Source: Raillietiella orientalis (Eukaryota). Taken from it: a stretch of DNA of 64,000 nt. Below are positions 11,061 through 53,850 of this stretch, piece after piece. The stretch's first letter is position 1. Each line of letters begins with the position of its first letter. The position numbers and the translations under genes were made by a program. The DNA lies in the NCBI GenBank assembly GCA_036172245.1, contig JAYWIR010000003.1, positions 3,782,001-3,846,000 on the forward strand, in the 5' to 3' direction. The notes below the pieces were generated by a model. It did not search any database, was not told where the DNA came from, and worked only from the letters and a program-made list of their open reading frames with translations.

Positions 11061-12099
11061 GCACATCCACGCCTCCACTTTCCCACATCAAGTGGCGTCG
11101 TCACGCAGCTGCTGCACGCGGAAGCGCAGAGCAAATCCCACGCCCACACCGGCCCACCCGTAATTCAGGAGCACACCATTGCTTCGAGCCGGTGCTACCA
11201 CGACTCACCACCGCTCCTTTCCTCGCTTACCCTGCACTCTGCGGAAGGAACTCCCACCATGCTATAACGAGGGGAGCGACTGCAAAAGGACACCCCGCAC
11301 ACTCCCGCGCAACATCCCTCCCGCGAACTCCCCAGCCGTCAACCACGCAGCGCGAGCACCTCCAAACGGCGCCTGCCCATTCTTTTTTTCTTTTTTTTCC
11401 TCTCGCGACTTGATGACTGTCCGTTGGCGCAGGTGAACGACTCCCGCTCCCCCTTCCCTCCACTGCAGAACGCATCCACACGGCTGCGAACGGAGGAATG
11501 CGAGAGGACGAAGACACGCGCAACGGACGAAAGTGGAGTATTCTCGCGACAGGCTGGACACGCTCGCCTCCCGAAACGCGTGCCAGAACCGCCGCGCGTT
11601 CTCCACACTCTCGTCCCACCAGCCAGCGACGGTCATCCGCCTCGCCACGGTCCTATAACCGAGACCGCCCAAGCACCGCCATCCCCATCCTGGCACCGCC
11701 AAGTTTCGCCTGCACTGTCCGGCGAAGCGCCGGGCGTACCGCCGTCCTCCCACCGGCTTTCGTACATCGTCCGCCCAATCTTGTCTCCGGTTGTCACCTA
11801 TCTGCCGTTCTGCACGCTGCGACCACTAGCCAAGCTCTCCAGCAAGCAGCAGCCACAGCCTCAGGGCGTCGCCTTCCATCCACCCCTCCCGCTAAGCAGC
11901 ATCCGGACCGACTTCTCCTTCCCGTGAACCCGAGTCCACCGCCAGGCTCCTGCGCTCCCACACGCAGCGGCACCCACCGCAGTCGCATGCGGGACCACGT
12001 CGGACCGCTCTCGCGCCACAGAGAAAGCGATCCACCGGTGCAGCACGCTGCTCCCTGGATTCGCGCGGCGGCCGGGAGAACCCCGGAAGGAGAATCCCG

Positions 12100-13100
12100 C
12101 AAGGTTCCGCAGGACGGCGGTGCACAGGCGACGCGAGATCAAAGCCTCCCGGAGACTAGCTGCGCCACGGCGTCTCTTCAAAGACGAAGAACCCCCACGA
12201 ATCGGTGGCAGCAGACCAGAAAGAGACATCAAGGATGTCGCTGCCAGGCGACGCAGCCAGGAGATCGACAGCAGACGGCTCCTTCGCTACTGCCTGCCGG
12301 TTGCCAAGTAGTCGTTTCGCTACCAGAAATGCGCGAACAACTCCCCCGTCACGCTTCCCGGCAGCCAGGACCTCACCAGCCGAAGTGCGGAACTCTCGGG
12401 CGTGCGCCCAACCACCGCGCGCACCAAAAACCAATCGCCGCGATCCGTACAAGGGGCGCGCCAGCCGCCCTAGCCCACGTTCGCGAAGGAGAGCGCCGCT
12501 CCGCGGCACCACGGACACAAGACGGGACGGCACGAAGGCGACTGCATCCACGACGAAGACATCGGAAGAGGGAGCGCGACCCCGGTCGGCCCAACGCAAG
12601 GAAACGCTCCAACAACATGCAAGGACTGCGAAGCCATCCGCCACCTGCAAACCGCCTGACGACGCAAGCCAACGCAACTCGACCTCGCGGGCACTCGCGG
12701 AAATTCCCGCTCAACGGGAGGCAAAGCGACGCCCTGCCGCCCGTATCGCCCCTTTACCGAATGGCGCACCAAAGTCCGTAAACACACCAACCCTTCGCAG
12801 CCATCCCACGTTCCCCTTCGCCGTTGCCTGGCAACTACCGAGCTCCCAGATCGCCTGCCAGCTGAAGAGAGCCTCCGACTGTCTCCCTGAACCAGAGAAT
12901 CCAATGAGTCAGCGAGGCAAGAACGGCGACAGAAAACTGGAGGGGAGAGCGCGCACGCATGCCGTCTGCGCGGGACGAACCAGACGCAACCTCGCCTCCA
13001 GCAAATTCCCGCCCGCTGCAATTCCCCGCCTTCGGGCGAGCGGTGGCGCGTGATCCACGAGTGGCGACCCGATCGAAGAGCTGCGCCTGCGAAGCCACCG
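12100..13100 (+). mobile_element. Highly degenerate, GC-shifted Penelope-like element (RT plus GIY-YIG remnants); mirror copy at ~51914-52914 (-)
   Basis: Frames RLFKDEEPP...RLLRYCL..SF (PLE RT-like) and TFPF...SQIA.QLK...AVCAGRTRRNLASS (resembling LPY...YxGxTxRxL of GIY-YIG). Similarity judged by eye. Confidence 0.45.
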
Positions 13101-14260
13101 CGTCCAGGACGCGCAGCTGGCGCGCGAACGATGAACGCCACGTTCCCGCCAGCGGTCCTCGCGGGAGACCCAACTACGACGAAGGCCGTGCAGCACCATC
13201 CACGCACCCACACCTGCCAAACGGAACGGAACGCACTTGGAAAACAGCATCCGCTCGGCTGCTCCGACCGAGCCGGTCCCTTGCAGTTGTCATCACCCGC
13301 CGGCGCGTACCAGGGATTGGTCGGGCCGGCCGCCCCCGGGAGCAACCCTCCGACTTCCGCAACCTCTGCGACAACCGCGCGGGCGCCCCCGCAGCCAGAC
13401 GATCCGCGCGACACTCGCAACGAGTCCCACGACACACGACCCCTCGTGCTACCGCGCCTGCGCCGCTTCCTCAGGTGAGTACCGATCTCCCTCTCCCGGT
13501 CTTCGCCACGCGTCCTTCGCCTCCCCCCCCAGTGCCCGGGCACCAGGTGCCAGAGACGTCGCCCACCACCAGAGTGGCGAGCCGCGAATATCCCACCGGT
13601 GGACCGCATCTTCCCTGCGCTCCCGCCGCCGAACCTCACCGAGCGACCGGATCTCCGGCCGACGGATTTGCGTCCGCGGTCACCGCCACGGACGACGGCA
13701 TACGCGACGCTTTCCTTCCGAGTGGACACCTCGCGCTCGGCACCGCCGCAGCCATGCGCGTAACCAGCATGCGCCGACACCAAACTCGACGTCGGGTCAG
13801 GCCCCTCTCGCTGCTGTGCTGCTGCTTATGCCACGCGCCCGAGCCCGGAGAGGCGACGCCCCGTCCGACAGCCACCACGGCAGCTCGACGTCGGTGCGAA
13901 CGAACTCGCGAACCGCCCGCGACCCCTGCCGAGAGTTGAAAGACCTCAGCGCGCGACCTCGCGACTCCTCGGCCAAATCCACTCCCTAGCGTCAGTGGAT
14001 CGCGCGCACGACGACGACCGCGAGTGACGTCCACCGCGCCCTTCCACACCTCCACCCGCGTGCCAACCACCCTGCCAGGCGCGCCTCATTCGCGCCAACG
14101 TCTCTCCCGGGAAGCCCGAGGCCCCTGCGCCGCTCCGCGCCCACGGCGGGCATGCCGATACCCGCGGCAGCGCGCTCACCCCTCCTCTCCCGCCCGCCGC
14201 CACTCATCCATCCCTTCCAGAATCCATCCCCGACAGAACAGCGACGCCTGCAAGCCGGCC

Positions 14261-15829
14261 ATGGCCTCGACCGCCTCTCCCTTCATCCGCCCATTGGGCA
14301 AGCTGGAAACCATGGCCCTGCGTATCCACGAGCACTGCGGCTCCCTCACCATCGTGTACTCCCTGCAGGTGCAAAGCAAAGTTCCCATCCGGGACGAGCA
14401 CCTGAAACAGGCGCTCTCCATACTCTTCCGGTAATGGCCGCGACCTGTCAAGCACGCCCAACCGAGTCGCCCACCCTTCTTTTCGAGGGCGCGACGCGCG
14501 AGCAGCGGCAGCAGTCGTCGATAGCGCGCGCGCGCGCGCGCGCACGAGCACGTTATGCAGCATGCGCCCTTCTTTCCTTGTTCCCTTCGCGCACCCAGGA
14601 AGCTGCAGCACCTCCGCTGCTGCATCGACGGCGCCGTCTTCCGGGAGATGTCGTGCGAGACGATCGACTTCGAGACGCTGCAAGCGGACGACTGGAAGAA
14701 AGAGTACGAGGCGCTGCTCGAGCACCAGTACGCCCTGCGCGATGGGCCGCTCTGGTGCTGCAGGATGGTGCGCTCCAAACACGCCACGCCTGACGAACAA
14801 CATGCCCAGTCCGAACAACGCTCTCCTCACGTCTTCCTGTTCGCCTTTCTACACTGCATCACCGACAGCACGTCCGACATGAGCACCTTCCGCCACTTCC
14901 TCCGCATCCTCAACAACGTCCTGCAGGGGAACCCTTCCGAGGAGCCGCCCATCACCATGCAGCCCAGCATGGACGACCTGGTGCCCTGCGCGCAAAGGCG
15001 CCTGCGATTCGCTGACGCCGCCGCCCTGCTCACCGAAGCCTGGCACCTGCTCACCAAGAGGTGCCCCTTCTACGAAGGACACCCGCCCGCCCAGCTGCAC
15101 GGAGAGCCCGTCACCAGGACCATCCACGCCATCCTCGACGCACGGCAAACCAGTCGCGTACTGCGCAGGTGCAAGCAGGAAGGAGCCACCGTACACGGCG
15201 CCTTCTGCATCGCCGCCGCCTTCGCCATGCTCGCCATGACCGACGAGTTCCGCAAGCACAAGACCGCCGCCCTGCGCGTGGGGCACGCCGTCAACCTGCG
15301 CAGGTTCCTAGGCCAACCCAACCTCGACACATTCGGGCCCTGCCTCGTCCTCCTCAACCACACCGTCAGCATACCAGCCAACTGCACCGACACGTTCTGG
15401 ACCCACGCACGACAGTACACCCACTTCCTGCACCAACAGCTACACCACGGCAAGCCCTTCCAGGCCAAGCGCGTCATGGAGGCCTGCTACAGGAACCCCA
15501 TCCCCATCGTCGACTGGCAGAGGGACCCAAAGCGCCACAACTGCCTCTACGACTTCGGCACAAGCAACATGGGCAACATCGACCACCTCATCCACGGAAA
15601 AGAAAGCCTCCTCGACCTCACCTCCCTACACCGATCCACCTCCTACCAGAACATGGGCTCCGGATTCACCCACAACCTGCAGACGTACCGAGGAAGGCTG
15701 CATTACACCCTCGACTACTTCACCAACGTCGTCGACACGCGCGCCGCCCAGGACTACAGCGACCGCGTCGTCCACGTCCTCACCCGCGTCAGCAGCAGCG
15801 ACGCCGCAACCAGAGACCCGCACGCGTAG
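14261..15829 (+). CDS. CoA-dependent acyltransferase, condensation-domain/alcohol-acetyltransferase (AATase)-like, 466 aa; join(14261..14430,14599..15829); arm copy 1
   Basis: ATG in GCCGGCCATGG. Phase-2 intron CG|gtaatg...cccag|G (168 nt). Motifs RPLGKLE (N-terminal), GPLW, FLHCITDS (HxxxD), TVHGA, VNLRRF, TSNMG. Homologous with the paralog at 30902-36674, with the same intron position. A possible 5' UTR intron at 13475..14220. Confidence 0.9.
14524..14543. repeat. (GC)10 alternating tract in the acyltransferase intron (mirror 50471-50490)
   Basis: gcgcgcgcgcgcgcgcgcgc read directly. Confidence 0.95.
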
Positions 15830-18800
15830 CCGCTGCCCCGCCACGCTCCTGCCGTGCCTCCACCGCAACCATAAAGATTCCTCCTCCCGAAACCAAGCTT
15901 CATCTCGTCACTGCCAACGGCGCCCACCGTCTCACCGACATACAGCCTTCTTCCACGCCTCCTTCGCACCACCCGACCATGCGTCCCCTCCCAACAGCTC
16001 ACACGCGCACCGCCAACACCTTCCCTTTCCCTCCTGGAAGCACTAGCAGGCCCCAGCACCACCGCTTTCGCGGAACTCGTGCTGCACCTCTTCCCTTCGC
16101 GCAGCCGAAACGCTCTCGTTCGACACCGCCTGCAAGCCAGCCCTCTCTTCCCATTCGTCCAACTGCCCGGGCACGCAGCCGCCTTCGCCATACCAGAAGG
16201 CTATCGCGAAATCGAGCACTTCCCTGCGAGGGAAGCACCGCTCACCCCCATACCCGGAAAAGCCACCCGCGCAGTGCACGTCGGCGCAGCAAGACCCATC
16301 CGCGTCCATAGTCCGCTCGCGCACCAACACCTGAAAAGCACGCATCCGTTCAGCACCTGCGACTCGCTCGCACACTCACGTTGGCTGCCCAACCAACTTG
16401 CCTTCCTTCCTCCATCGCTTCTTTCCTCGCTCGCAGACCACCTTCCCACGCGCCTGGCCTCGTCGCGACCTCAACTCTTGCCCTTCGCATCCAGTCCCAG
16501 CCACCGCGCACAGCCAGCCGCTTCCTACCCTGCACACGCCACGTGCATCGATCCCGGAAGACCGAAGCTGCTACGCGCAGCAAACACATCCGTCCCTGCC
16601 GAAGAGCGCTTCAGCCGTACCACCGCACGCTTGCCATCCTCGCTCCACATGACCCCTGAGCAACGCGCAAAACCAACCAACACAACGAGCTTCCTCTTCT
16701 CCTCGCAACCTTTCCAAGCACTGCCATTCCGAGCCACCGAGCCTACGATCTCTTCACGACCAGCACACATCCCTTACGACCACTCCCCTTCACCCATACT
16801 ATTGGCAACGTTGCTCTCCGACAAAAACCCCACTACGCCCACTCATCTTCATTCAATCGCCCCCCTCGCCCACAATTCGGCAGACCACGCCCAAACACCA
16901 TCCGCTCCTCCACAGGCCACGTAACCCGTCGTCGGCGATCGCCTTCGCACCGACTCCACCTTTGCACCACGCACACCACCTGCCACGCCCAGCCTCACAC
17001 GATCGGATCGGTTGCCCGCAGCCTTTGCGCTCCCGGTCACGACAGCACGCTCTCCTCTTGCCATGGCCAGGTATCCATCAGCATGCCTCTCCGCTTTCAT
17101 CCTCGCTCACCAGCACGAACTGCCCGGCGCACCAACACGCCGTCTTCACTTTCCAAAACCGACACTCTTTCGCCCATGCCCTGGAAATACGTCAAATACG
17201 TGCCCGCTGACCTCTCAAAAACGCTCCATCTACGCCAACTTCTTCGTGTGCGAAAGCGAAGCATCGACGCAAAAACAGCTCCGACGGAAAAGTGTCCTCG
17301 CACGCAACTCGAACTGACCGCTCGACGCCTAACGCTCTCACCCAACCACCACGCATTCCCGGATGTTCCTCCATCCCTTCCGGCATCCTGCTGACGGCAG
17401 CACTCCGCCCCTGCTCCAGCCATGCAGCTGCACACAAGGCAGCGAAACGAGGCGCCGTTTCGCAGCGTGCAGCAACTTCCCCCTACTTCCAAAAAAGGCA
17501 CCCATACCCACCCACCCTCCCCTTCAATCTGCGGACAATGCGCAACCAACACCAAATACACCAGTCCCTTTATTCACGAGCAGCATGCCACACACTCCAC
17601 AGTTGGCACGTTGCTAGGGCAAACGCTCGAAAACGTAAAGCAGCCCAACAGGTCACCAGCACCGGGTGCGCCTGCAGCAACGAACAGCAGGTCATCTTTT
17701 TCCTGCGCTCAAGGCACTCAGCAAAAAGCCACTCCCTCAGGATGTTGGCTCCCATCATGGAGGCGGTTCAATCCTAGCTACCACCTGCAGCCTCCTTCAT
17801 CTCCAACCATGCTTTCTTCTCAGAAGCTGCTTCCCTTCCAACCTTCACAAGCGTGTCCATCCAACACAGTGCTGAAGCATCGCAGTCTCCTTCCAACTAC
17901 CCACACATTCAGCACTTCTGCTCTGCCGCAAGCAACAGACACCACCTAAAAACACTTTCTTCAACCACCTTCAACACGCTTCAGCACTCTGGAGAAAAAA
18001 AGCACAAGCAAATGCAGCTCCATAAACAGAAGACATGCAGCAATAGCTTTGAAAAATCAGCTGGCAAAATCTCCCACATCTACAAATTCCCTGCCATGGC
18101 ACTTTTGCAGCTACTGCAGGGAAAGGTTCAGAGCTGAAACATCTCTCAGGTGCACTCCTTTGCTCCATGCCCCAAACCGTTTGCCATCCTGTCTACATTT
18201 ACATTGTAAACATGCACAAGCAGCCCAATTCACCCTGCAGCCTCTTGGCTACCCAAGCAAGCAAAATTCACACCCCATCCACTCCCATGCCATCACCCCA
18301 TTCCGTACCCTGCAACAGCAACCTGCAAAGTACTTTCGCAGCAGCCCTACACTACTTGCCACCAAACATCCTATGCTTCAAACAAAACAAACAAATCCAC
18401 CAACACACGGTTCCAAGGAATGCACCACCAGACGGTAGGAAACTTTGGAGAAGCACCACATCAATTTCTGCATTCAACACCTCATGCTCAACAGGCACGA
18501 TCAAAGGGTGGAGAGTAAGAAGCACAGGCAGAGCAGGCCAGCAACACGCGTGCAGCTGCAATTCCATGCTTCCCACAAACACCAGAACACCAACTGTGCA
18601 GCAATCAAAACCCAAGTCATGTCCAATTCGCGAAAAGGCATGCAACCACATTCGCAGATGCCAGTGGGCAACTGAAAAAGACTAGTTTCGTTCCCCAACC
18701 TCACCTTGGCCCTGGACAACAAAAACGCTGCCACCAGCCGCCGGTACCCGGCACCAGCACCGCTGGCGCAGCACATCGACTTGGCAACAAACTCAACAAA

Positions 18801-21800
18801 CCAAAATACCATCCGAATACAATTGCCTACCAATGCATTTCCAATCTCAAGCAGTGCACAGCCGTCCAGGAGAACGCCATCGTACCCGCAAACACGCGCT
18901 CATTCTGCACACGCAAAACGCACGTCCTCAGGAAGGAAAACCAAAATGAATGCAAAATCACCCGACGCTCCTTCCAAGAATCCAATTTTTGGCCTCCCTC
19001 GGCAACTTCCGATTTCACCACGCATTCAACACGGCGTGAGAAAGGAGGCACTCGCACAACCCCGCAGGCACGCTTCCGATGATGCTTGCACTGCAAAACA
19101 ACGCCTCTCCCCTGCCAAACAGCAGACCTGCAAACACCAGCCCACGCTCCGACTCCCTTTCCACGCCTGCGCTCGCACGGTTGCCAGAACACTTCCGGCA
19201 AACGCTGCTGCCATGCCGCTCGCGTCCGTTTGTGCCGCGATTCCGCAACGCGAAAAGTCCGCGATCGGGTGACCACTGGCCGCCACCTCCTCCCATCGCT
19301 CGTCCAATGCAAAACGCACTCTGCAAAACGGACTGCTCAGCCTGGCAACTCCCTGCTCCCGACCTCGACGGCGGTCCCATCCTACTCTCAGCAGCACGTC
19401 TGCACCTTGCGCAATGCCTCCTTCATCGACCGGCGAGGCAATCCAACTTTCTCGACGCGGTCGTTCCGCTTTCCCGGGGTGCCGATCGCGCGCGCAGCGT
19501 GCGGGGCATTCCGCGCGAACCATCGCGCTCCCTTTCCTCCCTCGCTTCGTGAGAAACAGCAGGCCCTGGTCGCCTTTCGGCGTGCGCTCCCAACCAAAGC
19601 ACCCGCGTTGCCGTCTACTTCGATCGCGTCTTCCGCTTTCCGACGCTCAGAAGGGAGGCAAGTCCACCAACCAAACGGCGTCTCCTCCATCGACCAGCGA
19701 CGGTCGCGTCCACTGCTTTCGCGCGATTTCCCATCGCCCAGTTCCTCTTTCTCTTCCTCTTACCGAGTTGGCTGTTCGAGTGGTGAGTCGGAACTCGGTG
19801 CGCGCATGCATTCCTTGAGGAAGCAGCTGGCGTCCAACCGACGCGCGGAACACGGTTCGAACGCCGTTTCCGGATCCGAGAGAGCCCCAACGCTTTCGAG
19901 TCGAGGGCGGCGCGTCGTTTCGGTTGCTCCCCATTCCGCTCCCTACCGATGTCCTTCCATTCTTCGGGGACTTCCTCTCGCGAGGATGGCTCCTCTGCAG
20001 TGCGCTTCCAGTCGCCACACGCATCCTGGAAAGGACAACGGAAACGAGCAACCTCACCTGGTTCGCAAAAGCGCCCTCCTCTCCTTCCCTGCATTCCTGC
20101 CGTGCTTGTCAGCGTCAACAGCGGACTTAGAGCAAGCCTCTCCCCGAGATGCCTGCCTGTCGTCCTGAGGGTGCTGCTGGAGCAAGCCTTGCTTCCTGGA
20201 AGCAGTCCTGCACGCGCATACGCTCCGTCCGCTCTGCGTCCTCCGTTCGGCAGACGTGCCGGGTGGCTCGCAGCAATTGCATCCGGGAGCAGTTCGGGCC
20301 TTCAGCAACGGTGCGATGAAAATCGGAACAGATGAAGAAGGGAGCCGGGAAAGCGCGACGGGAGGCAGTCGTCGTCGCTGTTGGTTCGTCCGGCATGGGG
20401 GGGCACCACCGCACGCCGTGCCGCGCTTCCGGATGATCGCAGAATTCGCTCCAAACGCGCGCCAGTTGCCGTCCTCCAACCGAAAAGGGAGCGCGAAGGC
20501 TGCAGGCCGTCCCCTGGAATGCCGAACGTTGGAAGAAGACGTTCACGCAGAACTGAGCGCACACGAACGCAGGCGCATCCTCTACGTATGGGCTTGCCCA
20601 CCGCTCGTGGGAAATCTGCGGTGACGAGAAAGCTGCGAGCTCCGCATGCGCGTGCAGCTCAAGAGCAGGAGCACGCAGGCGCCCATCCCACCGGAAGACC
20701 TCCATCTGCAGCGGAAACGGTGCGAATGCGGGCAGAGAGCGAGGAGGACGATGCACGTATCGTCCTCCTCCCGCAGACAGCGCGCAGCAACAACCCTGCA
20801 GGGAAGAAGCGGTGGTTGCTTGACGCCCCTGCGGGTGGCGGTGGCTGCCCATTGAGGAACTGCGTCTTCTTCCTGGTGCGGGGCAGAGCGAGCCAAATCG
20901 ACGCGCTTTCCAACCCAAGGCAGAAAGGAGTTCGATGCCCGCGCAACGGATCGGCGGAAACGTGGGCTGCCTCCGCAACGCGCTACCCCCCCCTACCCCC
21001 CCCCCCCGAGCGTCTACTTTCCGGACCACGCGGGGCGAGAACTGGTGTTCAGTGTCTGGACGCCGGCACGGTCAGCTGGTCATCCCGCAGATGCTACTGC
21101 AAGTGCTCCTCCAAAGTATGGCACTCGGTGAGCACCTGCGGTCCTCTGCACGGTGTGCCACTTTTTTCCACGTTGCATTCTTCGGCGACACGCTGCAAGA
21201 CAAGGAGTTGTTCCGCTAGCACAACGCTGCTGACGCGCGACGTCTGCATTGCGCATTCCGCTGAGTCAAATGTCCCAGTCGAGGGTGGAATTCCGCCCTG
21301 AAATCTCCCGGTGATCGCAGAGCAGAAGACATACCTGGCGACAGGAGGCTCCCGAGTCCTGGGTGACCAGAGAAACCTCGTACGCTGCCAAAGCTCCTTT
21401 GCGATTCGCCGAGAGATCTCCGGTCTGCGGGACAGCACGCAGTGGCCACGGATACCCTTCGCACTCCTTCGCGCAACACCATATGCCCTCAGGGTAGCCG
21501 ATCGGAAGCGCGGAACGCATCGCGCACCATTGCAAGTGTCGCCAAACACCTGCACGACTGCACGACGAGCGCGTTGGCGAACGCCGCCACTCCACGTTGC
21601 CGGCAGAAGCAACTGCTTCGGCGACGCCGCTCCAGCTTCTTGCGTGCCCGTGGAACTACTGGTTCTTCCCTCCCTCGCGTACGTACACCACGGTGCTCCT
21701 GCGGCTGCGTAGGGAACGAGATGTCCTGCAGGTTCTGCTGCTCTGGGGATCCCGGTGCAACGAGCACCCGGTATTCGACAGAGCTGCATCCATGCACTGT

Positions 21801-22412
21801 CTGAGACGCCTTGGTAAGCGCGGAGCCAAGAAGTCGGCATGGAGACGGCGACAATTCAATGTTAGCTGCAAGAAGGGAGCTTCCAAAGATCCGTGCCCCT
21901 ACCCTTCCTCCGTTTGCCGCGTTCGTTGCCTCCTCTTGCCGCTACTCATTCTCTATCAAGCCGACTTCCGACCTGGTGCTGACTCCCACACAACTTCTTT
22001 CTCCCTTTCTTCCTGCTTCGTGGCTGTTTCGTCGCCTCCGCTTTGTAGTTTCTTTGTCTGCAAGGAACGTCCCGACATCCTCCGGCAGCTGCGCACAGCA
22101 TCCGCTACCTGAGCCTCGTGCTGATGATGCATCGTGTGGTTCGTCTTCCTGCCAGCGCGTCGCCGCCAGAGGGGATGCTCAGGCGATCCGAGGGGGAGGA
22201 TGGATGCGAGGGCGATCTTGCGGCTCGACTGCGGCTTCGCGTTCTTTCGAGGGTTCGTGCACTTCCAGATGGGGAGGGGAAACCGAGAACAGCAGGCACG
22301 GCTGCTCATTTCGGAAAAGGACGTGCATGTCGAGGGGGGAGACTCGCGGTCGCAGGGCGGCACAGGGGGGGTGACGACGAAAGACGTGTATCTCGTGATC
22401 ACGCGTGTGGCG

Positions 22413-25313: not shown

Positions 25314-26599
25314 GTCGTTGCTCCAAACGTTCGGTCGCTGAGCTTTGATTTGATTCTTTTCTTGTTGATCTTCCGAGGTTAATGTTGTGTGACGATGAGA
25401 GGTGTGTTTTCGTTTGCAGATCCGAAGTTACTTTCGTGAAAGTCTTCTCATTTCAAAAGGGAAATAGGAGAGTCATTTTTTTCTTTTTTCCTTCTTGTTC
25501 TTTTGGGAAACGATTCTCCGCCGATGTGGATCACGTTGTTTGTGACTTTCTTGTCGGTTCTTGGAATCGTGGTTATCAAAATTTGAGGAAGTAGTGCGGA
25601 AGGAGGGCGGAGGGGTGGCTTTCCTAAGGCGGTGGTACGAGCTGCGTGCATACTGAGGGTATGTCCGGGAATGCCGAAGGCAGTGCTTCCTGTACGAATG
25701 CCGTCTCATGGCTCCTTTCTTTCGGAAAAGGAATAGGGAACTTGGGAGTTGTGGGATCATGGGAAATCTGGACGTTCAAGCTCAGCTCGGAGGAGAATTT
25801 TTTCTTCCCTTGATGGGTACGGTCGACTGGAGATGCGAACGTGCGAAGTGATCCTTCGATTCCGAAAGAGATTGCAGAGTTCTGATGCCCACGTAGAAGC
25901 ACCCTCTATACTTTGGGGGTACGCGTGTCAGGATGTGTCTGGGGTGTCGGCTGTGACATGACATATCACGCGAGCGTTAATCTAGCTAAACTGCTCGCGC
26001 ATCTGGGTGGGTGGAAATTCGCATGCCGAAACACTGGGTTCGTTGCTATCGTCACCCCAATGCCAAGTTCAAGGTGTCCCCGTCATCACTTCGAATGCAC
26101 TGATGCCAGGTACAAATCGTCGATAGGTGTACCGACGACCATGCCATGGATGTTGAATAGTGAGATAGGAATTCATTAATGCACGTAAATGATGCAAATT
26201 TTCGATAGAAGGAAGTTCCTTAGAATATGTTGAAATTATTGTTGGTGAATAATAAGCAGTCTTTTTGGGGAACGTTGGTCCTGTGGGAATTTCGTGGCTA
26301 CTTGACTTCTGTTTCACGAAATTCTTCCGTGTTGTTTATGACCTCTGAATCATGCGTCTTCGTCAGGGGCAGAGATTTCACAGTATTTGGTTCGTCTGTT
26401 TTCGCAGCTGCTTGTAAAGACCTGTGCAGGTGCCCTGGTAGCTCGATAATACGAAGTGTTGTCTCTTCGCCAAGGTTCAGCGATATTCGTTGTCAAGAAA
26501 GCGCATTCTCAGAATTCTGATTTCCAATGGAGAAAGCAAGGATTTCAAATGAATTCCTCACATGCGAGATGCCTATTGGTGCAGGAAGCGGAAGGGAAA

Positions 26600-30503: not shown

Positions 30504-30534
<31 letters not shown>

Positions 30535-42400: not shown

Positions 42401-42600
42401 GCAGCATTCCGCGGGAGGTCGCCTCGGACCTTCATCTTTCCACCACGAGGGGCGTTCGTTTCGCGAGAGGAGGGCGCCACTGCGATAGTCCGCATTAGCC
42501 CTCTTACTGTGCAGCTCTACTGCCCTCGTTCAGGATCCCGATCCCAACTGGCCCTACGGCATCGGTTCTTCTTCACCTTCATCACTGAGGCCAGCCTCGT
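39436..42600 (+). mobile_element. Degraded Tx1/L1-like LINE ORF2 straddling the inner boundary of the right arm
   Basis: APE-like start MKTITSLCVTG...HDFFLQDT at 39436, outside the arm. Inside the arm are degenerate RT-like segments (SASAHADK ~41360, cf. VSAYADD) and the post-RT motif SRKGGIAAPNF (~42230). Confidence 0.55.
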
Positions 42601-45600
42601 CGCCACACGCGTGATCACGAGATACACGTCTTTCGTCGTCACCCCCCCTGTGCCGCCCTGCGACCGCGAGTCTCCCCCCTCGACATGCACGTCCTCTTCC
42701 GAAATGAGCAGCCGTGCCTGCTGTTCTCGGTTTCCCCTCCCCATCTGGAAGTGCACGAACCCTCGAAAGAACGCGAAGCCGCAGTCGAGCCGCAAGATCG
42801 CCCTCGCATCCATCCTCCCCCTCGGATCGCCTGAGCATCCCCTCTGGCGGCGACGCGCTGGCAGGAAGACGAACCACACGATGCATCATCAGCACGAGGC
42901 TCAGGTAGCGGATGCTGTGCGCAGCTGCCGGAGGATGTCGGGACGTTCCTTGCAGACAAAGAAACTACAAAGCGGAGGCGACGAAACAGCCACGAAGCAG
43001 GAAGAAAGGGAGAAAGAAGTTGTGTGGGAGTCAGCACCAGGTCGGAAGTCGGCTTGATAGAGAATGAGTAGCGGCAAGAGGAGGCAACGAACGCGGCAAA
43101 CGGAGGAAGGGTAGGGGCACGGATCTTTGGAAGCTCCCTTCTTGCAGCTAACATTGAATTGTCGCCGTCTCCATGCCGACTTCTTGGCTCCGCGCTTACC
43201 AAGGCGTCTCAGACAGTGCATGGATGCAGCTCTGTCGAATACCGGGTGCTCGTTGCACCGGGATCCCCAGAGCAGCAGAACCTGCAGGACATCTCGTTCC
43301 CTACGCAGCCGCAGGAGCACCGTGGTGTACGTACGCGAGGGAGGGAAGAACCAGTAGTTCCACGGGCACGCAAGAAGCTGGAGCGGCGTCGCCGAAGCAG
43401 TTGCTTCTGCCGGCAACGTGGAGTGGCGGCGTTCGCCAACGCGCTCGTCGTGCAGTCGTGCAGGTGTTTGGCGACACTTGCAATGGTGCGCGATGCGTTC
43501 CGCGCTTCCGATCGGCTACCCTGAGGGCATATGGTGTTGCGCGAAGGAGTGCGAAGGGTATCCGTGGCCACTGCGTGCTGTCCCGCAGACCGGAGATCTC
43601 TCGGCGAATCGCAAAGGAGCTTTGGCAGCGTACGAGGTTTCTCTGGTCACCCAGGACTCGGGAGCCTCCTGTCGCCAGGTATGTCTTCTGCTCTGCGATC
43701 ACCGGGAGATTTCAGGGCGGAATTCCACCCTCGACTGGGACATTTGACTCAGCGGAATGCGCAATGCAGACGTCGCGCGTCAGCAGCGTTGTGCTAGCGG
43801 AACAACTCCTTGTCTTGCAGCGTGTCGCCGAAGAATGCAACGTGGAAAAAAGTGGCACACCGTGCAGAGGACCGCAGGTGCTCACCGAGTGCCATACTTT
43901 GGAGGAGCACTTGCAGTAGCATCTGCGGGATGACCAGCTGACCGTGCCGGCGTCCAGACACTGAACACCAGTTCTCGCCCCGCGTGGTCCGGAAAGTAGA
44001 CGCTCGGGGGGGGGGGGGTAGGGGGGGGTAGCGCGTTGCGGAGGCAGCCCACGTTTCCGCCGATCCGTTGCGCGGGCATCGAACTCCTTTCTGCCTTGGG
44101 TTGGAAAGCGCGTCGATTTGGCTCGCTCTGCCCCGCACCAGGAAGAAGACGCAGTTCCTCAATGGGCAGCCACCGCCACCCGCAGGGGCGTCAAGCAACC
44201 ACCGCTTCTTCCCTGCAGGGTTGTTGCTGCGCGCTGTCTGCGGGAGGAGGACGATACGTGCATCGTCCTCCTCGCTCTCTGCCCGCATTCGCACCGTTTC
44301 CGCTGCAGATGGAGGTCTTCCGGTGGGATGGGCGCCTGCGTGCTCCTGCTCTTGAGCTGCACGCGCATGCGGAGCTCGCAGCTTTCTCGTCACCGCAGAT
44401 TTCCCACGAGCGGTGGGCAAGCCCATACGTAGAGGATGCGCCTGCGTTCGTGTGCGCTCAGTTCTGCGTGAACGTCTTCTTCCAACGTTCGGCATTCCAG
44501 GGGACGGCCTGCAGCCTTCGCGCTCCCTTTTCGGTTGGAGGACGGCAACTGGCGCGCGTTTGGAGCGAATTCTGCGATCATCCGGAAGCGCGGCACGGCG
44601 TGCGGTGGTGCCCCCCCATGCCGGACGAACCAACAGCGACGACGACTGCCTCCCGTCGCGCTTTCCCGGCTCCCTTCTTCATCTGTTCCGATTTTCATCG
44701 CACCGTTGCTGAAGGCCCGAACTGCTCCCGGATGCAATTGCTGCGAGCCACCCGGCACGTCTGCCGAACGGAGGACGCAGAGCGGAAGGAGCGTATGCGC
44801 GTGCAGGACTGCTTCCAGGAAGCAAGGCTTGCTCCAGCAGCACCCTCAGGACGACAGGCAGGCATCTCGGGGAGAGGCTTGCTCTAAGTCCGCTGTTGAC
44901 GCTGACAAGCACGGCAGGAATGCAGGGAAGGAGAGGAGGGCGCTTTTGCGAACCAGGTGAGGTTGCTCGTTTCCGTTGTCCTTTCCAGGATGCGTGTGGC
45001 GACTGGAAGCGCACTGCAGAGGAGCCATCCTCGCGAGAGGAAGTCCCCGAAGAATGGAAGGACATCGGTAGGGAGCGGAATGGGGAGCAACCGAAACGAC
45101 GCGCCGCCCTCGACTCGAAAGCGTTGGGGCTCTCTCGGATCCGGAAACGGCGTTCGAACCGTGTTCCGCGCGTCGGTTGGACGCCAGCTGCTTCCTCAAG
45201 GAATGCATGCGCGCACCGAGTTCCGACTCACCACTCGAACAGCCAACTCGGTAAGAGGAAGAGAAAGAGGAACTGGGCGATGGGAAATCGCGCGAAAGCA
45301 GTGGACGCGACCGTCGCTGGTCGATGGAGGAGACGCCGTTTGGTTGGTGGACTTGCCTCCCTTCTGAGCGTCGGAAAGCGGAAGACGCGATCGAAGTAGA
45401 CGGCAACGCGGGTGCTTTGGTTGGGAGCGCACGCCGAAAGGCGACCAGGGCCTGCTGTTTCTCACGAAGCGAGGGAGGAAAGGGAGCGCGATGGTTCGCG
45501 CGGAATGCCCCGCACGCGGCGCGCGCGATCGGCACCCCGGGAAAGCGGAACGACCGCGTCGAGAAAGTTGGATTGCCTCGCCGGTCGATGAAGGAGGCAT

Positions 45601-48600
45601 TGCGCAAGGTGCAGACGTGCTGCTGAGAGTAGGATGGGACCGCCGTCGAGGTCGGGAGCAGGGAGTTGCCAGGCTGAGCAGTCCGTTTTGCAGAGTGCGT
45701 TTTGCATTGGACGAGCGATGGGAGGAGGTGGCGGCCAGTGGTCACCCGATCGCGGACTTTTCGCGTTGCGGAATCGCGGCACAAACGGACGCGAGCGGCA
45801 TGGCAGCAGCGTTTGCCGGAAGTGTTCTGGCAACCGTGCGAGCGCAGGCGTGGAAAGGGAGTCGGAGCGTGGGCTGGTGTTTGCAGGTCTGCTGTTTGGC
45901 AGGGGAGAGGCGTTGTTTTGCAGTGCAAGCATCATCGGAAGCGTGCCTGCGGGGTTGTGCGAGTGCCTCCTTTCTCACGCCGTGTTGAATGCGTGGTGAA
46001 ATCGGAAGTTGCCGAGGGAGGCCAAAAATTGGATTCTTGGAAGGAGCGTCGGGTGATTTTGCATTCATTTTGGTTTTCCTTCCTGAGGACGTGCGTTTTG
46101 CGTGTGCAGAATGAGCGCGTGTTTGCGGGTACGATGGCGTTCTCCTGGACGGCTGTGCACTGCTTGAGATTGGAAATGCATTGGTAGGCAATTGTATTCG
46201 GATGGTATTTTGGTTTGTTGAGTTTGTTGCCAAGTCGATGTGCTGCGCCAGCGGTGCTGGTGCCGGGTACCGGCGGCTGGTGGCAGCGTTTTTGTTGTCC
46301 AGGGCCAAGGTGAGGTTGGGGAACGAAACTAGTCTTTTTCAGTTGCCCACTGGCATCTGCGAATGTGGTTGCATGCCTTTTCGCGAATTGGACATGACTT
46401 GGGTTTTGATTGCTGCACAGGTGGTGTTCTGGTGTTTGTGGGAAGCATGGAATTGCAGCTGCACGCGTGTTGCTGGCCTGCTCTGCCTGTGCTTCTTACT
46501 CTCCACCCTTTGATCGTGCCTGTTGAGCATGAGGTGTTGAATGCAGAAATTGATGTGGTGCTTCTCCAAAGTTTCCTACCGTCTGGTGGTGCATTCCTTG
46601 GAACCGTGTGTTGGTGGATTTGTTTGTTTTGTTTGAAGCATAGGATGTTTGGTGGCAAGTAGTGTAGGGCTGCTGCGAAAGTACTTTGCAGGTTGCTGTT
46701 GCAGGGTACGGAATGGGGTGATGGCATGGGAGTGGATGGGGTGTGAATTTTGCTTGCTTGGGTAGCCAAGAGGCTGCAGGGTGAATTGGGCTGCTTGTGC
46801 ATGTTTACAATGTAAATGTAGACAGGATGGCAAACGGTTTGGGGCATGGAGCAAAGGAGTGCACCTGAGAGATGTTTCAGCTCTGAACCTTTCCCTGCAG
46901 TAGCTGCAAAAGTGCCATGGCAGGGAATTTGTAGATGTGGGAGATTTTGCCAGCTGATTTTTCAAAGCTATTGCTGCATGTCTTCTGTTTATGGAGCTGC
47001 ATTTGCTTGTGCTTTTTTTCTCCAGAGTGCTGAAGCGTGTTGAAGGTGGTTGAAGAAAGTGTTTTTAGGTGGTGTCTGTTGCTTGCGGCAGAGCAGAAGT
47101 GCTGAATGTGTGGGTAGTTGGAAGGAGACTGCGATGCTTCAGCACTGTGTTGGATGGACACGCTTGTGAAGGTTGGAAGGGAAGCAGCTTCTGAGAAGAA
47201 AGCATGGTTGGAGATGAAGGAGGCTGCAGGTGGTAGCTAGGATTGAACCGCCTCCATGATGGGAGCCAACATCCTGAGGGAGTGGCTTTTTGCTGAGTGC
47301 CTTGAGCGCAGGAAAAAGATGACCTGCTGTTCGTTGCTGCAGGCGCACCCGGTGCTGGTGACCTGTTGGGCTGCTTTACGTTTTCGAGCGTTTGCCCTAG
47401 CAACGTGCCAACTGTGGAGTGTGTGGCATGCTGCTCGTGAATAAAGGGACTGGTGTATTTGGTGTTGGTTGCGCATTGTCCGCAGATTGAAGGGGAGGGT
47501 GGGTGGGTATGGGTGCCTTTTTTGGAAGTAGGGGGAAGTTGCTGCACGCTGCGAAACGGCTCCTCGTTTCGCTGCCTTGTGTGCAGCTGCATGGCTGGAG
47601 CAGGGGCGGAGTGCTGCCGTCAGCAGGATGCCGGAAGGGATGGAGGAACATCCGGGAATGCGTGGTGGTTGGGTGAGAGCGTTAGGCGTCGAGCGGTCAG
47701 TTCGAGTTGCGTGCGAGGACACTTTTCCGTCGGAGCTGTTTTTGCGTCGATGCTTCGCTTTCGCACACGAAGAAGTTGGCGTAGATGGAGCGTTTTTGAG
47801 AGGTCAGCGGGCACGTATTTGACGTATTTCCAGGGCATGGGCGAAAGAGTGTCGGTTTTGGAAAGTGAAGACGGCGTGTTGGTGCGCCGGGCAGTTCGTG
47901 CTGGTGAGCGAGGATGAAAGCGGAGAGGCATGCTGATGGATACCTGGCCATGGCAAGAGGAGAGCGTGCTGTCGTGACCGGGAGCGCAAAGGCTGCGGGC
48001 AACCGATCCGATCGTGTGAGGCTGGGCGTGGCAGGTGGTGTGCGTGGTGCAAAGGTGGAGTCGGTGCGAAGGCGATCGCCGACGACGGGTTACGTGGCCT
48101 GTGGAGGAGCGGATGGTGTTTGGGCGTGGTCTGCCGAATTGTGGGCGAGGGGGGCGATTGAATGAAGATGAGTGGGCGTAGTGGGGTTTTTGTCGGAGAG
48201 CAACGTTGCCAATAGTATGGGTGAAGGGGAGTGGTCGTAAGGGATGTGTGCTGGTCGTGAAGAGATCGTAGGCTCGGTGGCTCGGAATGGCAGTGCTTGG
48301 AAAGGTTGCGAGGAGAAGAGGAAGCTCGTTGTGTTGGTTGGTTTTGCGCGTTGCTCAGGGGTCATGTGGAGCGAGGATGGCAAGCGTGCGGTGGTACGGC
48401 TGAAGCGCTCTTCGGCAGGGACGGATGTGTTTGCTGCGCGTAGCAGCTTCGGTCTTCCGGGATCGATGCACGTGGCGTGTGCAGGGTAGGAAGCGGCTGG
48501 CTGTGCGCGGTGGCTGGGACTGGATGCGAAGGGCAAGAGTTGAGGTCGCGACGAGGCCAGGCGCGTGGGAAGGTGGTCTGCGAGCGAGGAAAGAAGCGAT

Positions 48601-51600
48601 GGAGGAAGGAAGGCAAGTTGGTTGGGCAGCCAACGTGAGTGTGCGAGCGAGTCGCAGGTGCTGAACGGATGCGTGCTTTTCAGGTGTTGGTGCGCGAGCG
48701 GACTATGGACGCGGATGGGTCTTGCTGCGCCGACGTGCACTGCGCGGGTGGCTTTTCCGGGTATGGGGGTGAGCGGTGCTTCCCTCGCAGGGAAGTGCTC
48801 GATTTCGCGATAGCCTTCTGGTATGGCGAAGGCGGCTGCGTGCCCGGGCAGTTGGACGAATGGGAAGAGAGGGCTGGCTTGCAGGCGGTGTCGAACGAGA
48901 GCGTTTCGGCTGCGCGAAGGGAAGAGGTGCAGCACGAGTTCCGCGAAAGCGGTGGTGCTGGGGCCTGCTAGTGCTTCCAGGAGGGAAAGGGAAGGTGTTG
49001 GCGGTGCGCGTGTGAGCTGTTGGGAGGGGACGCATGGTCGGGTGGTGCGAAGGAGGCGTGGAAGAAGGCTGTATGTCGGTGAGACGGTGGGCGCCGTTGG
49101 CAGTGACGAGATGAAGCTTGGTTTCGGGAGGAGGAATCTTTATGGTTGCGGTGGAGGCACGGCAGGAGCGTGGCGGGGCAGCGGCTACGCGTGCGGGTCT
49201 CTGGTTGCGGCGTCGCTGCTGCTGACGCGGGTGAGGACGTGGACGACGCGGTCGCTGTAGTCCTGGGCGGCGCGCGTGTCGACGACGTTGGTGAAGTAGT
49301 CGAGGGTGTAATGCAGCCTTCCTCGGTACGTCTGCAGGTTGTGGGTGAATCCGGAGCCCATGTTCTGGTAGGAGGTGGATCGGTGTAGGGAGGTGAGGTC
49401 GAGGAGGCTTTCTTTTCCGTGGATGAGGTGGTCGATGTTACCCATGTTGCTTGTGCCGAAGTCGTAGAGGCAGTTGTGGCGCTTTGGGTCCCTCTGCCAG
49501 TCGACGATGGGGATGGGGTTCCTGTAGCAGGCCTCCATGACGCGCTTGGCCTGGAAGGGCTTGCCGTGGTGTAGCTGTTGGTGCAGGAAGTGGGTGTACT
49601 GTCGTGCGTGGGTCCAGAACGTGTCGGTGCAGTTGGCTGGTATGCTGACGGTGTGGTTGAGGAGGACGAGGCAGGGCCCGAATGTGTCGAGGTTGGGTTG
49701 GCCTAGGAACCTGCGCAGGTTGACGGCGTGCCCCACGCGCAGGGCGGCGGTCTTGTGCTTGCGGAACTCGTCGGTCATGGCGAGCATGGCGAAGGCGGCG
49801 GCGATGCAGAAGGCGCCGTGTACGGTGGCTCCTTCCTGCTTGCACCTGCGCAGTACGCGACTGGTTTGCCGTGCGTCGAGGATGGCGTGGATGGTCCTGG
49901 TGACGGGCTCTCCGTGCAGCTGGGCGGGCGGGTGTCCTTCGTAGAAGGGGCACCTCTTGGTGAGCAGGTGCCAGGCTTCGGTGAGCAGGGCGGCGGCGTC
50001 AGCGAATCGCAGGCGCCTTTGCGCGCAGGGCACCAGGTCGTCCATGCTGGGCTGCATGGTGATGGGCGGCTCCTCGGAAGGGTTCCCCTGCAGGACGTTG
50101 TTGAGGATGCGGAGGAAGTGGCGGAAGGTGCTCATGTCGGACGTGCTGTCGGTGATGCAGTGTAGAAAGGCGAACAGGAAGACGTGAGGAGAGCGTTGTT
50201 CGGACTGGGCATGTTGTTCGTCAGGCGTGGCGTGTTTGGAGCGCACCATCCTGCAGCACCAGAGCGGCCCATCGCGCAGGGCGTACTGGTGCTCGAGCAG
50301 CGCCTCGTACTCTTTCTTCCAGTCGTCCGCTTGCAGCGTCTCGAAGTCGATCGTCTCGCACGACATCTCCCGGAAGACGGCGCCGTCGATGCAGCAGCGG
50401 AGGTGCTGCAGCTTCCTGGGTGCGCGAAGGGAACAAGGAAAGAAGGGCGCATGCTGCATAACGTGCTCGTGCGCGCGCGCGCGCGCGCGCTATCGACGAC
50501 TGCTGCCGCTGCTCGCGCGTCGCGCCCTCGAAAAGAAGGGTGGGCGACTCGGTTGGGCGTGCTTGACAGGTCGCGGCCATTACCGGAAGAGTATGGAGAG
50601 CGCCTGTTTCAGGTGCTCGTCCCGGATGGGAACTTTGCTTTGCACCTGCAGGGAGTACACGATGGTGAGGGAGCCGCAGTGCTCGTGGATACGCAGGGCC
50701 ATGGTTTCCAGCTTGCCCAATGGGCGGATGAAGGGAGAGGCGGTCGAGGCCATGGCCGGCTTGCAGGCGTCGCTGTTCTGTCGGGGATGGATTCTGGAAG
50801 GGATGGATGAGTGGCGGCGGGCGGGAGAGGAGGGGTGAGCGCGCTGCCGCGGGTATCGGCATGCCCGCCGTGGGCGCGGAGCGGCGCAGGGGCCTCGGGC
50901 TTCCCGGGAGAGACGTTGGCGCGAATGAGGCGCGCCTGGCAGGGTGGTTGGCACGCGGGTGGAGGTGTGGAAGGGCGCGGTGGACGTCACTCGCGGTCGT
51001 CGTCGTGCGCGCGATCCACTGACGCTAGGGAGTGGATTTGGCCGAGGAGTCGCGAGGTCGCGCGCTGAGGTCTTTCAACTCTCGGCAGGGGTCGCGGGCG
51101 GTTCGCGAGTTCGTTCGCACCGACGTCGAGCTGCCGTGGTGGCTGTCGGACGGGGCGTCGCCTCTCCGGGCTCGGGCGCGTGGCATAAGCAGCAGCACAG
51201 CAGCGAGAGGGGCCTGACCCGACGTCGAGTTTGGTGTCGGCGCATGCTGGTTACGCGCATGGCTGCGGCGGTGCCGAGCGCGAGGTGTCCACTCGGAAGG
51301 AAAGCGTCGCGTATGCCGTCGTCCGTGGCGGTGACCGCGGACGCAAATCCGTCGGCCGGAGATCCGGTCGCTCGGTGAGGTTCGGCGGCGGGAGCGCAGG
51401 GAAGATGCGGTCCACCGGTGGGATATTCGCGGCTCGCCACTCTGGTGGTGGGCGACGTCTCTGGCACCTGGTGCCCGGGCACTGGGGGGGGAGGCGAAGG
51501 ACGCGTGGCGAAGACCGGGAGAGGGAGATCGGTACTCACCTGAGGAAGCGGCGCAGGCGCGGTAGCACGAGGGGTCGTGTGTCGTGGGACTCGTTGCGAG

Positions 51601-53850
51601 TGTCGCGCGGATCGTCTGGCTGCGGGGGCGCCCGCGCGGTTGTCGCAGAGGTTGCGGAAGTCGGAGGGTTGCTCCCGGGGGCGGCCGGCCCGACCAATCC
51701 CTGGTACGCGCCGGCGGGTGATGACAACTGCAAGGGACCGGCTCGGTCGGAGCAGCCGAGCGGATGCTGTTTTCCAAGTGCGTTCCGTTCCGTTTGGCAG
51801 GTGTGGGTGCGTGGATGGTGCTGCACGGCCTTCGTCGTAGTTGGGTCTCCCGCGAGGACCGCTGGCGGGAACGTGGCGTTCATCGTTCGCGCGCCAGCTG
51901 CGCGTCCTGGACGCGGTGGCTTCGCAGGCGCAGCTCTTCGATCGGGTCGCCACTCGTGGATCACGCGCCACCGCTCGCCCGAAGGCGGGGAATTGCAGCG
52001 GGCGGGAATTTGCTGGAGGCGAGGTTGCGTCTGGTTCGTCCCGCGCAGACGGCATGCGTGCGCGCTCTCCCCTCCAGTTTTCTGTCGCCGTTCTTGCCTC
52101 GCTGACTCATTGGATTCTCTGGTTCAGGGAGACAGTCGGAGGCTCTCTTCAGCTGGCAGGCGATCTGGGAGCTCGGTAGTTGCCAGGCAACGGCGAAGGG
52201 GAACGTGGGATGGCTGCGAAGGGTTGGTGTGTTTACGGACTTTGGTGCGCCATTCGGTAAAGGGGCGATACGGGCGGCAGGGCGTCGCTTTGCCTCCCGT
52301 TGAGCGGGAATGTCCGCGAGTGCCCGCGAGGTCGAGTTGCGTTGGCTTGCGTCGTCAGGCGGTTTGCAGGTGGCGGATGGCTTCGCAGTCCTTGCATGTT
52401 GTTGGAGCGTTTCCTTGCGTTGGGCCGACCGGGGTCGCGCTCCCTCTTCCGATGTCTTCGTCGTGGATGCAGTCGCCTTCGTGCCGTCCCGTCTTGTGTC
52501 CGTGGTGCCGCGGAGCGGCGCTCTCCTTCGCGAACGTGGGCTAGGGCGGCTGGCGCGCCCCTTGTACGGATCGCGGCGATTGGTTTTTGGTGCGCGCGGT
52601 GGTTGGGCGCACGCCCGAGAGTTCCGCACTTCGGCTGGTGAGGTCCTGGCTGCCGGGAAGCGTGACGGGGGAGTTGTTCGCGCATTTCTGGTAGCGAAAC
52701 GACTACTTGGCAACCGGCAGGCAGTAGCGAAGGAGCCGTCTGCTGTCGATCTCCTGGCTGCGTCGCCTGGCAGCGACATCCTTGATGTCTCTTTCTGGTC
52801 TGCTGCCACCGATTCGTGGGGGTTCTTCGTCTTTGAAGAGACGCCGTGGCGCAGCTAGTCTCCGGGAGGCTTTGATCTCGCGTCGCCTGTGCACCGCCGT
52901 CCTGCGGAACCTTGCGGGATTCTCCTTCCGGGGTTCTCCCGGCCGCCGCGCGAATCCAGGGAGCAGCGTGCTGCACCGGTGGATCGCTTTCTCTGTGGCG
53001 CGAGAGCGGTCCGACGTGGTCCCGCATGCGACTGCGGTGGGTGCCGCTGCGTTTGGGAGCGCAGGAGCCTGGCGGTGGACTCGGGTTCACGGGAAGGAGA
53101 AGTCGGTCCGGATGCTGCTTAGCGGGAGGGGTGGATGGAAGGCGACGCCCTGAGGCTGTGGCTGCTGCTTGCTGGAGAGCTTGGCTAGTGGTCGCAGCGT
53201 GCAGAACGGCAGATAGGTGACAACCGGAGACAAGATTGGGCGGACGATGTACGAAAGCCGGTGGGAGGACGGCGGTACGCCCGGCGCTTCGCCGGACAGT
53301 GCAGGCGAAACTTGGCGGTGCCAGGATGGGGATGGCGGTGCTGGGGCGGTCTCGGTTATAGGACCGTGGCGAGGCGGATGACCGTCGCTGGCTGGTGGGA
53401 CGAGAGTGTGGAGAACGCGCGGCGGTTCTGGCACGCGTTTCGGGAGGCGAGCGTGTCCAGCCTGTCGCGAGAATACTCCACTTTCGTCCGTTGCGCGTGT
53501 CTTCGTCCTCTCGCATTCCTCCGTTCGCAGCCGTGTGGATGCGTTCTGCAGTGGAGGGAAGGGGGAGCGGGAGTCGTTCACCTGCGCCAACGGACAGTCA
53601 TCAAGTCGCGAGAGGAAAAAAAAGAAAAAAAGAATGGGCAGGCGCCGTTTGGAGGTGCTCGCGCTGCGTGGTTGACGGCTGGGGAGTTCGCGGGAGGGAT
53701 GTTGCGCGGGAGTGTGCGGGGTGTCCTTTTGCAGTCGCTCCCCTCGTTATAGCATGGTGGGAGTTCCTTCCGCAGAGTGCAGGGTAAGCGAGGAAAGGAG
53801 TGGTGGTGAGTCGTGGGAGCACCGGCTCGAAGCAATGGTCTGCTCCCGAA
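39700..53850 (-). repeat. Right arm of the ~14.1-kb inverted repeat
   Basis: Reverse complement of 11164-25313; 9 substitutions and 1 homopolymer indel detected in the core. Confidence 0.98.
49185..50753 (-). CDS. CoA-dependent acyltransferase, condensation/AATase-like, 466 aa; complement(join(49185..50415,50584..50753)); arm copy 2
   Basis: Mirror of 14261-15829 with the same protein; one synonymous GGC/GGT difference seen (15574 vs 49440). Confidence 0.9.

Follow-up and report, generated by a model that had tools for sequence, protein, structure and literature searches.

Why should two genes that face each other across a 14.4-kb spacer encode exactly the same protein, when a relative lying between them shares fewer than half of its residues with either? 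Does such an arrangement record an old palindrome whose arms have been copied onto each other, or only a recent duplication? The question is raised by a 64,000-nucleotide stretch of the Raillietiella orientalis genome (NCBI GenBank assembly GCA_036172245.1, contig JAYWIR010000003.1, positions 3,782,001 to 3,846,000 of the forward strand), here called the window; coordinates count from its first letter. The window holds a large inverted repeat with an HxxxD acyltransferase gene in each arm, which an earlier sequence-only reading had likened to the palindromes of primate sex chromosomes. Judged by its sequence organization, this inverted repeat is a genuine gene-bearing palindromic segmental duplication, whose old extent would have covered at least 10719-55018 (about 44.3 kb). 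We put the chance at slightly better than even that it is an old duplication whose core has since been homogenized by arm-to-arm gene conversion. New in the present analysis are a diverged inverted homology outside the core and a step in G+C content (GC) of the arms at both inner borders.

Results

Identity of the two arms

How alike are the arms? A repeat search of the window returned two abutting inverted pairs, 11146-21007/44007-53868 and 20986-25313/39700-44027, which represent one arm split by a 1-bp difference in poly-C length at 20995. Self-megablast aligned 11157-25313 to 53856-39700 with 99.887% identity over 14,158 columns. The homology truly starts at 11164 and 53850, exactly where the sequence-only reading had placed it, and the whole arms delimited in this way differ by 13 substitutions and one indel. 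The resulting identity of about 99.90%, around a unique spacer of 14,386 bp, bears out the earlier description of inverted arms some 99.9% identical on either side of 14.4 kb. Four of the 13 substitutions are crowded into the outermost 50 bp. The remaining core (11214-25313) contains nine substitutions and the poly-C indel in the gapped arm alignment, an identity of about 99.93-99.94%; all of these substitutions (9/9) pair a weak with a strong base (A/T with G/C). On both sides the palindrome is followed by more than 10 kb of unique flanking DNA, the left and right flanks being mutually non-homologous. No tandem arrays were found in the arms by a window-wide tandem-repeat search, and Rfam gave no match in the whole window.

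An identity step at the outer border

What lies beyond the outer arm ends? A short distance outside each arm we found one of a pair of blocks that mirror each other (Table 1). These outer blocks are 93.6% identical (309 of 330 columns) and are separated by 14 transitions, 5 transversions and 2 gaps, an ordinary substitution spectrum. The edge of the arm itself (11164-11213), which is contiguous with the core, has 4 mismatches in 50 bp and thus 92% identity. In Fisher tests the core (9/14,100) differs from this edge (4/50) with p = 1e-7 and from the outer block (19/328) with p = 2e-25; edge and outer block are alike in their divergence (p = 0.53).

Outer block and arm are kept apart by heterologous DNA on either side. 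A global alignment of the left with the right heterology scores no better than shuffled sequence, and a search for residual homology between a 98-bp stretch on the left and the non-repeat part on the right found none. Most of the right heterology is a copy of a dispersed repeat, present as three diverged copies at 53983-54689, 55460-56166 and, more weakly, 5-448. The first two are about 70% identical at the nucleotide level, with a translated identity of 34-50%. Similarity to the repeat stops exactly at 54689/54690, the border of the outer block. The right heterology looks like a transposon-derived insertion into an older, longer arm, which would have parted the outer block from arm 2.

A simple single duplication would give uniform identity. 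Because the arms instead combine mirrored outer homology of 92-94% with a core of 99.94%, the comparison supports the view that the core would have been homogenized after an older inverted duplication, by copying from arm to arm. It thereby lends support to the earlier claim that arm-to-arm copying had made the arms alike.

Table 1. Coordinates of the palindrome and its genes in the window
Feature	Position	Strand	Details
Left outer block	10719-11047		Inverted homology to 54690-55018; GC 0.617
Left heterology	11048-11163		Without detectable right-side counterpart
Arm 1	11164-25313		GC 0.628; CpG observed/expected 1.07; inner border sharp
Arm core	11214-25313		14,100 bp
Arm-1 acyltransferase gene	14261-15829	+	Exon 1 14261-14430; intron 14431-14598 (GT..AG, 168 bp); exon 2 14599-15829
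Unique spacer	25314-39699		14,386 bp; GC 0.485
Spacer paralog	32741-36674	+	Exon 1 32741-32868; GT..AG intron of 2,575 bp; exon 2 35444-36674
Arm 2	39700-53850		Mirror image of arm 1
Arm-2 acyltransferase gene	49185-50753	-	Exon 1 50753-50584; exon 2 50415-49185
Right heterology	53851-54689		About 53983-54689 is a diverged dispersed-repeat copy
Right outer block	54690-55018		Diverged mirror of 10719-11047; GC 0.605

The acyltransferase genes of the arms

Each arm had been said to hold an intact, inward-pointing HxxxD acyltransferase, and the two-exon gene models, one on each strand, agree with this. Their products of 466 aa, with the HxxxD motif (HCITD) at residues 142-146, are identical. The single difference between the two coding sequences is synonymous (GGC/GGT, at 15574 and its mirror 49440). 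Along the window the genes follow one another as arm gene (+), spacer gene (+) and arm gene (-), so that both arm copies point inward.

Do the arms encode anything else? Arm 2 aside, we compared all 171 stop-to-stop open reading frames (ORFs) that reach 110 aa with Pfam. The curated cutoff was exceeded only by the acyltransferase ORFs of arm 1 and the spacer and by one RVT_1 match in the right flank. Matches to YcaO (17 bits) and to protein X (16.6 bits) lie below the cutoff and were dismissed. Within the arm, a 3-base periodicity of GC is confined to 14214-15829, and the long overlapping arm ORFs, which lack codon periodicity, were taken as GC-rich noise. From these patterns it looks as if each arm has one protein-coding gene and as if the rest, nine-tenths of the tract, is non-coding.

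The non-coding part of the arm shows a marked strand asymmetry (11000-25313, mirror 39700-54000). Between about 11000 and 19500 the + strand is rich in both C and A, and the GC skew reaches -0.48 at 16500-16999; some 3.5 kb beyond the stop codon of the arm gene share in the asymmetry. Farther along, between about 22000 and 25300, the + strand is instead rich in G, and the skew switches near the poly-C run at about 20983-21007. A long 3' untranslated region plus a convergent non-coding transcript could be responsible. A local 70-bp imperfect palindrome, 85.7% self-complementary, lies some 1.1 kb short of the inner arm end (24175-24243, mirror 40770-40838).

The diverged paralog in the spacer

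The third gene is intact as well and encodes a protein of 452 aa with the motif HSITD. It had been described as an intact, diverged paralog with roughly half of its residues identical to those of the arm protein. The first part holds; the identity is somewhat lower, 42% by BLASTP (161/387, E 7e-113) or 43% over 446 aligned columns. Arm gene and spacer paralog have the position and phase of the intron in common, and the splice sites are canonical. Their common upstream exon was revealed by tblastx; tblastn with three Penaeus relatives gave matches only from residue ~68 of these proteins onwards.

Does the spacer otherwise resemble the arms? By blastn the similarity is limited to the coding sequence of the paralog (77.7% over 103 nt), and tblastx of arm against spacer yields matches along both exons, plus weaker scattered ones. 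The paralog clearly lies outside the homogenized tract. It has an uncertain start codon, since about 11 codons that precede its first in-frame ATG, and that follow a long poly-T tract, are also homologous to the arm protein (32579-32760); the N-terminus may be shorter, or there may be one more 5' exon.

Protein family and predicted fold

To which family do these proteins belong? The profiles relevant here are PF16911 (PapA_C), PF00668 (Condensation) and PF07247 (AATase). PapA_C is matched by the arm copies with 37.1 bits and by the spacer copy with 30.6 bits (cutoff 30), and AATase is matched by the spacer copy with 27.8 bits (cutoff 22). All 52 aligned family members have the histidine and aspartate of the HxxxD motif (H85 and D89). 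Exon 2 was modeled with AlphaFold, and the model reached a predicted local distance difference test score (pLDDT) of 89.7 and a predicted template modeling score (pTM) of 0.90. Its best match among PDB structures in Foldseek is 8s6l (E 3e-18, template modeling score 0.72), followed by condensation, epimerization and cyclization domains of non-ribosomal peptide synthetases; together with 8s6l these matches range from E 1e-13 to 3e-18. A sequence search of the PDB also returned 8s6l, as the one relative (E 7.6e-7).

Relatives in sequence libraries are distant. HMMER, run against 1.84 billion representatives, found 500 relatives at E <= 0.001, none of them above 32% identity. A word-indexed protein search returned three Penaeus proteins only, at 30-31% identity, and the nearest clusters of the ESM Atlas belong to Arthropoda. 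Neither the source species nor its close kin are represented in the protein libraries searched; the nearest relatives of the arm protein are arthropod, at about 30% identity, and no database protein comes closer than 30-32%.

On the strength of profile matches and modeled fold, the product is a stand-alone condensation-fold HxxxD acyltransferase of an arthropod-type branch, its activity being predicted. With PapA5-like HxxxD acyltransferases it shares Pfam matches above cutoff, the invariant HxxxD motif and, in the model, the two-lobed condensation fold resembling chloramphenicol acetyltransferase. It differs from them in that the palindrome genes belong to a eukaryotic, arthropod-type branch. 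We know of no characterized member of this branch of the condensation-fold acyltransferases, and a literature search for characterized arthropod members of the acyltransferase family returned nothing relevant.

Base composition inside and outside the arms

The arms also stand out by their composition. Their GC is 0.628, compared with 0.485 in the spacer and 0.43 and 0.39 in the far flanks. At either border between arm and spacer, about 250 bp suffice for GC to drop from 0.65-0.72 to 0.41-0.54. The difference extends to the genes: GC at first, second and third codon positions is 0.60/0.43/0.87 in the arm gene and 0.49/0.37/0.65 in the spacer paralog, and the introns have a GC of 0.67 and 0.49, respectively. 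Measured against 30 outgroup proteins, the arm lineage has gained 7 and lost 2 glycine, alanine, arginine or proline residues, and the spacer lineage has gained 2 and lost 6. The enrichment of the arms fits what GC-biased gene conversion predicts.

At 17500-19000 (mirror 46000-47500) the arm has a GC dip of 0.48-0.53, elsewhere its GC is 0.6-0.7. The dip may be a younger insertion that was later copied to both arms.

Elements in the flanks

Each flank contains a degraded reverse-transcriptase fragment of a non-LTR (long terminal repeat) retrotransposon, or long interspersed nuclear element (LINE), on the minus strand (2768-3292 and 56387-57763). The right fragment, 56387-57763, is frameshifted, and its best relative, 68% identical, comes from a metagenome contig. 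The far right flank has an AT-rich, diverged direct repeat (61822-62087 and 63241-63541, 67.5% identity) and the sole tandem repeat of the window, a short AT-rich array of 23-bp period at 63508-63568.

Discussion

How does this locus compare with known palindromes?

Palindromes on the primate Y and X chromosomes are maintained by arm-to-arm gene conversion (Hallast et al. 2013, PMC3723533; Rozen et al. 2003, as cited in PMC7953838). The palindrome described here resembles them in having arms about 99.9% identical or above, a unique spacer and intact arm genes. It is also like them in that the arms are richer in GC than spacer and flanks, and in a homogenization that would have followed the original duplication. 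It differs in size, with arms of only 14 kb and one small gene in each. For primate X palindromes, Jackson et al. 2021 (PMC8981503) give 46.3% GC in the arms and 41.2% in the flanks. Set beside this difference of about 5 points between arm and flank, the contrast of about 14 points seen here, which is one between arm and spacer, points in the same direction and is much larger. Arm structure and GC enrichment are thus those of the Y/X-palindrome class; the case for concerted evolution would draw on an internal proxy, the identity step, rather than on an ortholog.

Homogenized inverted copies are not confined to sex chromosomes. In Drosophila, the inverted Hsp70 gene pairs are homogenized by gene conversion. 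These pairs are like the present locus in that two inverted copies are kept identical by intrachromosomal conversion, an ordinary and widespread outcome of inverted duplication. They differ from it in that the tract here extends over 14 kb, is nine-tenths non-coding and encloses a spacer with an old third paralog. Palindromes in an invertebrate genome are also said to have been described by Faddeeva-Vakhrusheva and co-workers in 2017. Jaron et al. 2020 (PMC7953838) themselves state that misassembly accounts for some of the palindromes that they present from Adineta vaga, Folsomia candida and other invertebrates, which are then false positives. In that paper the palindromes are gene-bearing inverted duplications on one scaffold, discussed as substrates of gene conversion, and in this they resemble ours. 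They were found as collinear blocks of genes, whereas the palindrome of R. orientalis is seen at the nucleotide level and has an internal identity step. The type of structure is already known; what is unusual is the strong arm-specific GC enrichment, together with a built-in, unconverted paralog as a control.

Old palindrome, recent duplication or artefact?

How could this structure have come about? In the history to which we give slightly better than even chances, an ancestral acyltransferase gene would have been duplicated long ago, giving rise to the arm and spacer lineages that are now 42-43% identical. A segment of at least 14.6 kb with one of the two genes would later have given rise to an inverted copy beyond the paralog. 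A transposon-derived insertion would then have detached the outermost 330 bp from the right arm, and the detached block and the 50-bp arm edge would have diverged to 92-94%. The remaining 14.1 kb would have kept being copied between the inverted arms by intrachromosomal gene conversion. Because such conversion is proposed to be GC-biased, it would have raised the arms alone to 63% GC and their gene to a GC of 0.87 at third codon positions (GC3), with more glycine, alanine, arginine and proline. The outcome would be two identical, intact, inward-pointing copies, and a spacer paralog that, beyond the conversion tract, evolves on its own. In this account, the palindromic structure, the intactness of the genes and the steps in identity and GC are observed directly, and the fold is as modeled; we infer in what order the events took place, that conversion happened repeatedly and not just once, and that a GC bias lies behind the GC step.

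Several observations weigh against this history. One alternative, rather improbable in our judgment, is a recent one-step inverted duplication. An end broken in one of two old, short inverted repeats would have invaded its partner about 28 kb away. Today's outer blocks and arm edge, 92-94% identical, would be these old repeats. About 14.1 kb of single-copy DNA that was already rich in GC would have been copied inward by break-induced replication or template switching and rejoined beside the spacer. The palindrome would then be as young as its 0.06% divergence, with no history of concerted evolution. The identity step would be given equally by one recent copying event seeded in this way, and the switch from 92% to about 100% within contiguous homology at 11213/11214 is as expected at a point of strand invasion. 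Both inner borders are sharp: identity is random past 25313/25314 and 39699/39700, without a frayed zone, and a BLAST search for diverged inverted homology between the two spacer ends found none. The composition is ambiguous too. The GC-rich domain overshoots the arm on the left (9500-11146, GC 0.44-0.64) and on the right (53869-58500, GC 0.55-0.60, partly LINE), there are further sharp GC transitions at about 9400 and 58600, and the outer block, which lies outside the conversion, still has about 0.61 GC. For these reasons part or all of the GC richness may predate the duplication. On the left, the domain begins at about 9500 and includes the arm, so that it could be an island that was already there, and the GC of the outer block indicates a richness older than its isolation. 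The contrast between the two lineages in glycine, alanine, arginine and proline is only marginal (p = 0.057), and scans of metagenome contigs with the arm protein and with the alignment of the two paralogs returned no related locus. The one-step duplication, for its part, would demand several coincidences, none of them decisive. Copying must end, at 25313, within about 250 bp of a pre-existing GC boundary, the spacer must be low in GC at the new junction too, and the old short repeats must sit mirrored exactly at the future ends of the arms. The transposon-like heterology, moreover, adjoins the outer block as an insertion into a longer arm would.

Could the palindrome have been made by the assembly? 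A false inverted duplication or a mis-resolved repeat path, with the arm differences as polishing noise, is unlikely in our judgment. Foldback artefacts have little or no spacer and are located at contig ends; here a unique, gene-bearing spacer of 14.4 kb separates the arms, and two different unique flanks are joined to their ends. These flanks are not alleles of each other, since no homology was found past the outer block by BLAST and alignment. An assembler cannot produce mirrored homology of 92-94% outside the core, and the occurrence of this homology beside a core of 99.94% therefore argues that the structure was not assembler-made. What speaks for an artefact is the near-identity of the arms and the kind of differences that they show, the latter also counting against the history favored above. 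Seven of the nine core substitutions (11671, 11961, 12702, 17453, 18593, 19496 and 20227, with their mirrors) belong to one unusual class, A:C / G:T transversions, and one more difference is a homopolymer length, whereas the outer block is rich in transitions and has only 5 transversions among 19 substitutions (Fisher p = 0.017). This could be a mutation spectrum rich in G:C-to-T:A changes, or consensus and polishing errors. That published invertebrate palindromes include misassemblies, as Jaron et al. 2020 (PMC7953838) relate, lends the artefact some further weight. A very large mobile element whose terminal inverted repeats measure 14 kb, or a 14-kb element inserted twice in opposite orientations, with the acyltransferase as cargo, would also have identical inverted arms of a composition unlike their surroundings, but we regard it as very improbable. 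Among the 171 ORFs, those in arms and spacer contain no transposase, integrase, polymerase or other mobile-element domain in Pfam, and the acyltransferase gene is the sole stretch of the arm with coding periodicity. The outer border is no clean terminus but frays into diverged homology, and a BLAST comparison gave no sign of inverted repeats at the termini of the arm itself. Inverted repeats like those of herpesviruses, poxviruses or organelles were dropped from consideration, as the window has no viral, rRNA or organelle genes.

Implications

What would follow from each of these origins? If the palindrome is only recent, it amounts to a commonplace inverted segmental duplication by which an uncharacterized arthropod-type acyltransferase is doubled in dose. 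In both cases the locus offers a clean test of assembly validity, since current long reads can span its 14-kb arms.

More tentatively, we consider it possible, though on balance doubtful, that the palindrome has persisted for a long time in an arthropod-like invertebrate, and that recurrent GC-biased conversion would have taken 14 kb of largely non-coding sequence from about 48% up to 63% GC. It is likewise a doubtful possibility that the same process drove the enzyme gene to a GC3 of 0.87 and changed which amino acids its product favors, while the paralog, at a distance of 17 kb, kept the background composition. If this is true, the compositional footprint would be far stronger than in the palindromes of primate sex chromosomes. 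The locus would then be a natural experiment, with one gene family both inside and outside a conversion tract, for measuring GC-biased conversion in an invertebrate. In a long-lived palindrome of this kind, one could read directly, outside vertebrate sex chromosomes, how conversion acts on codon usage, on the composition of proteins and on non-coding DNA.

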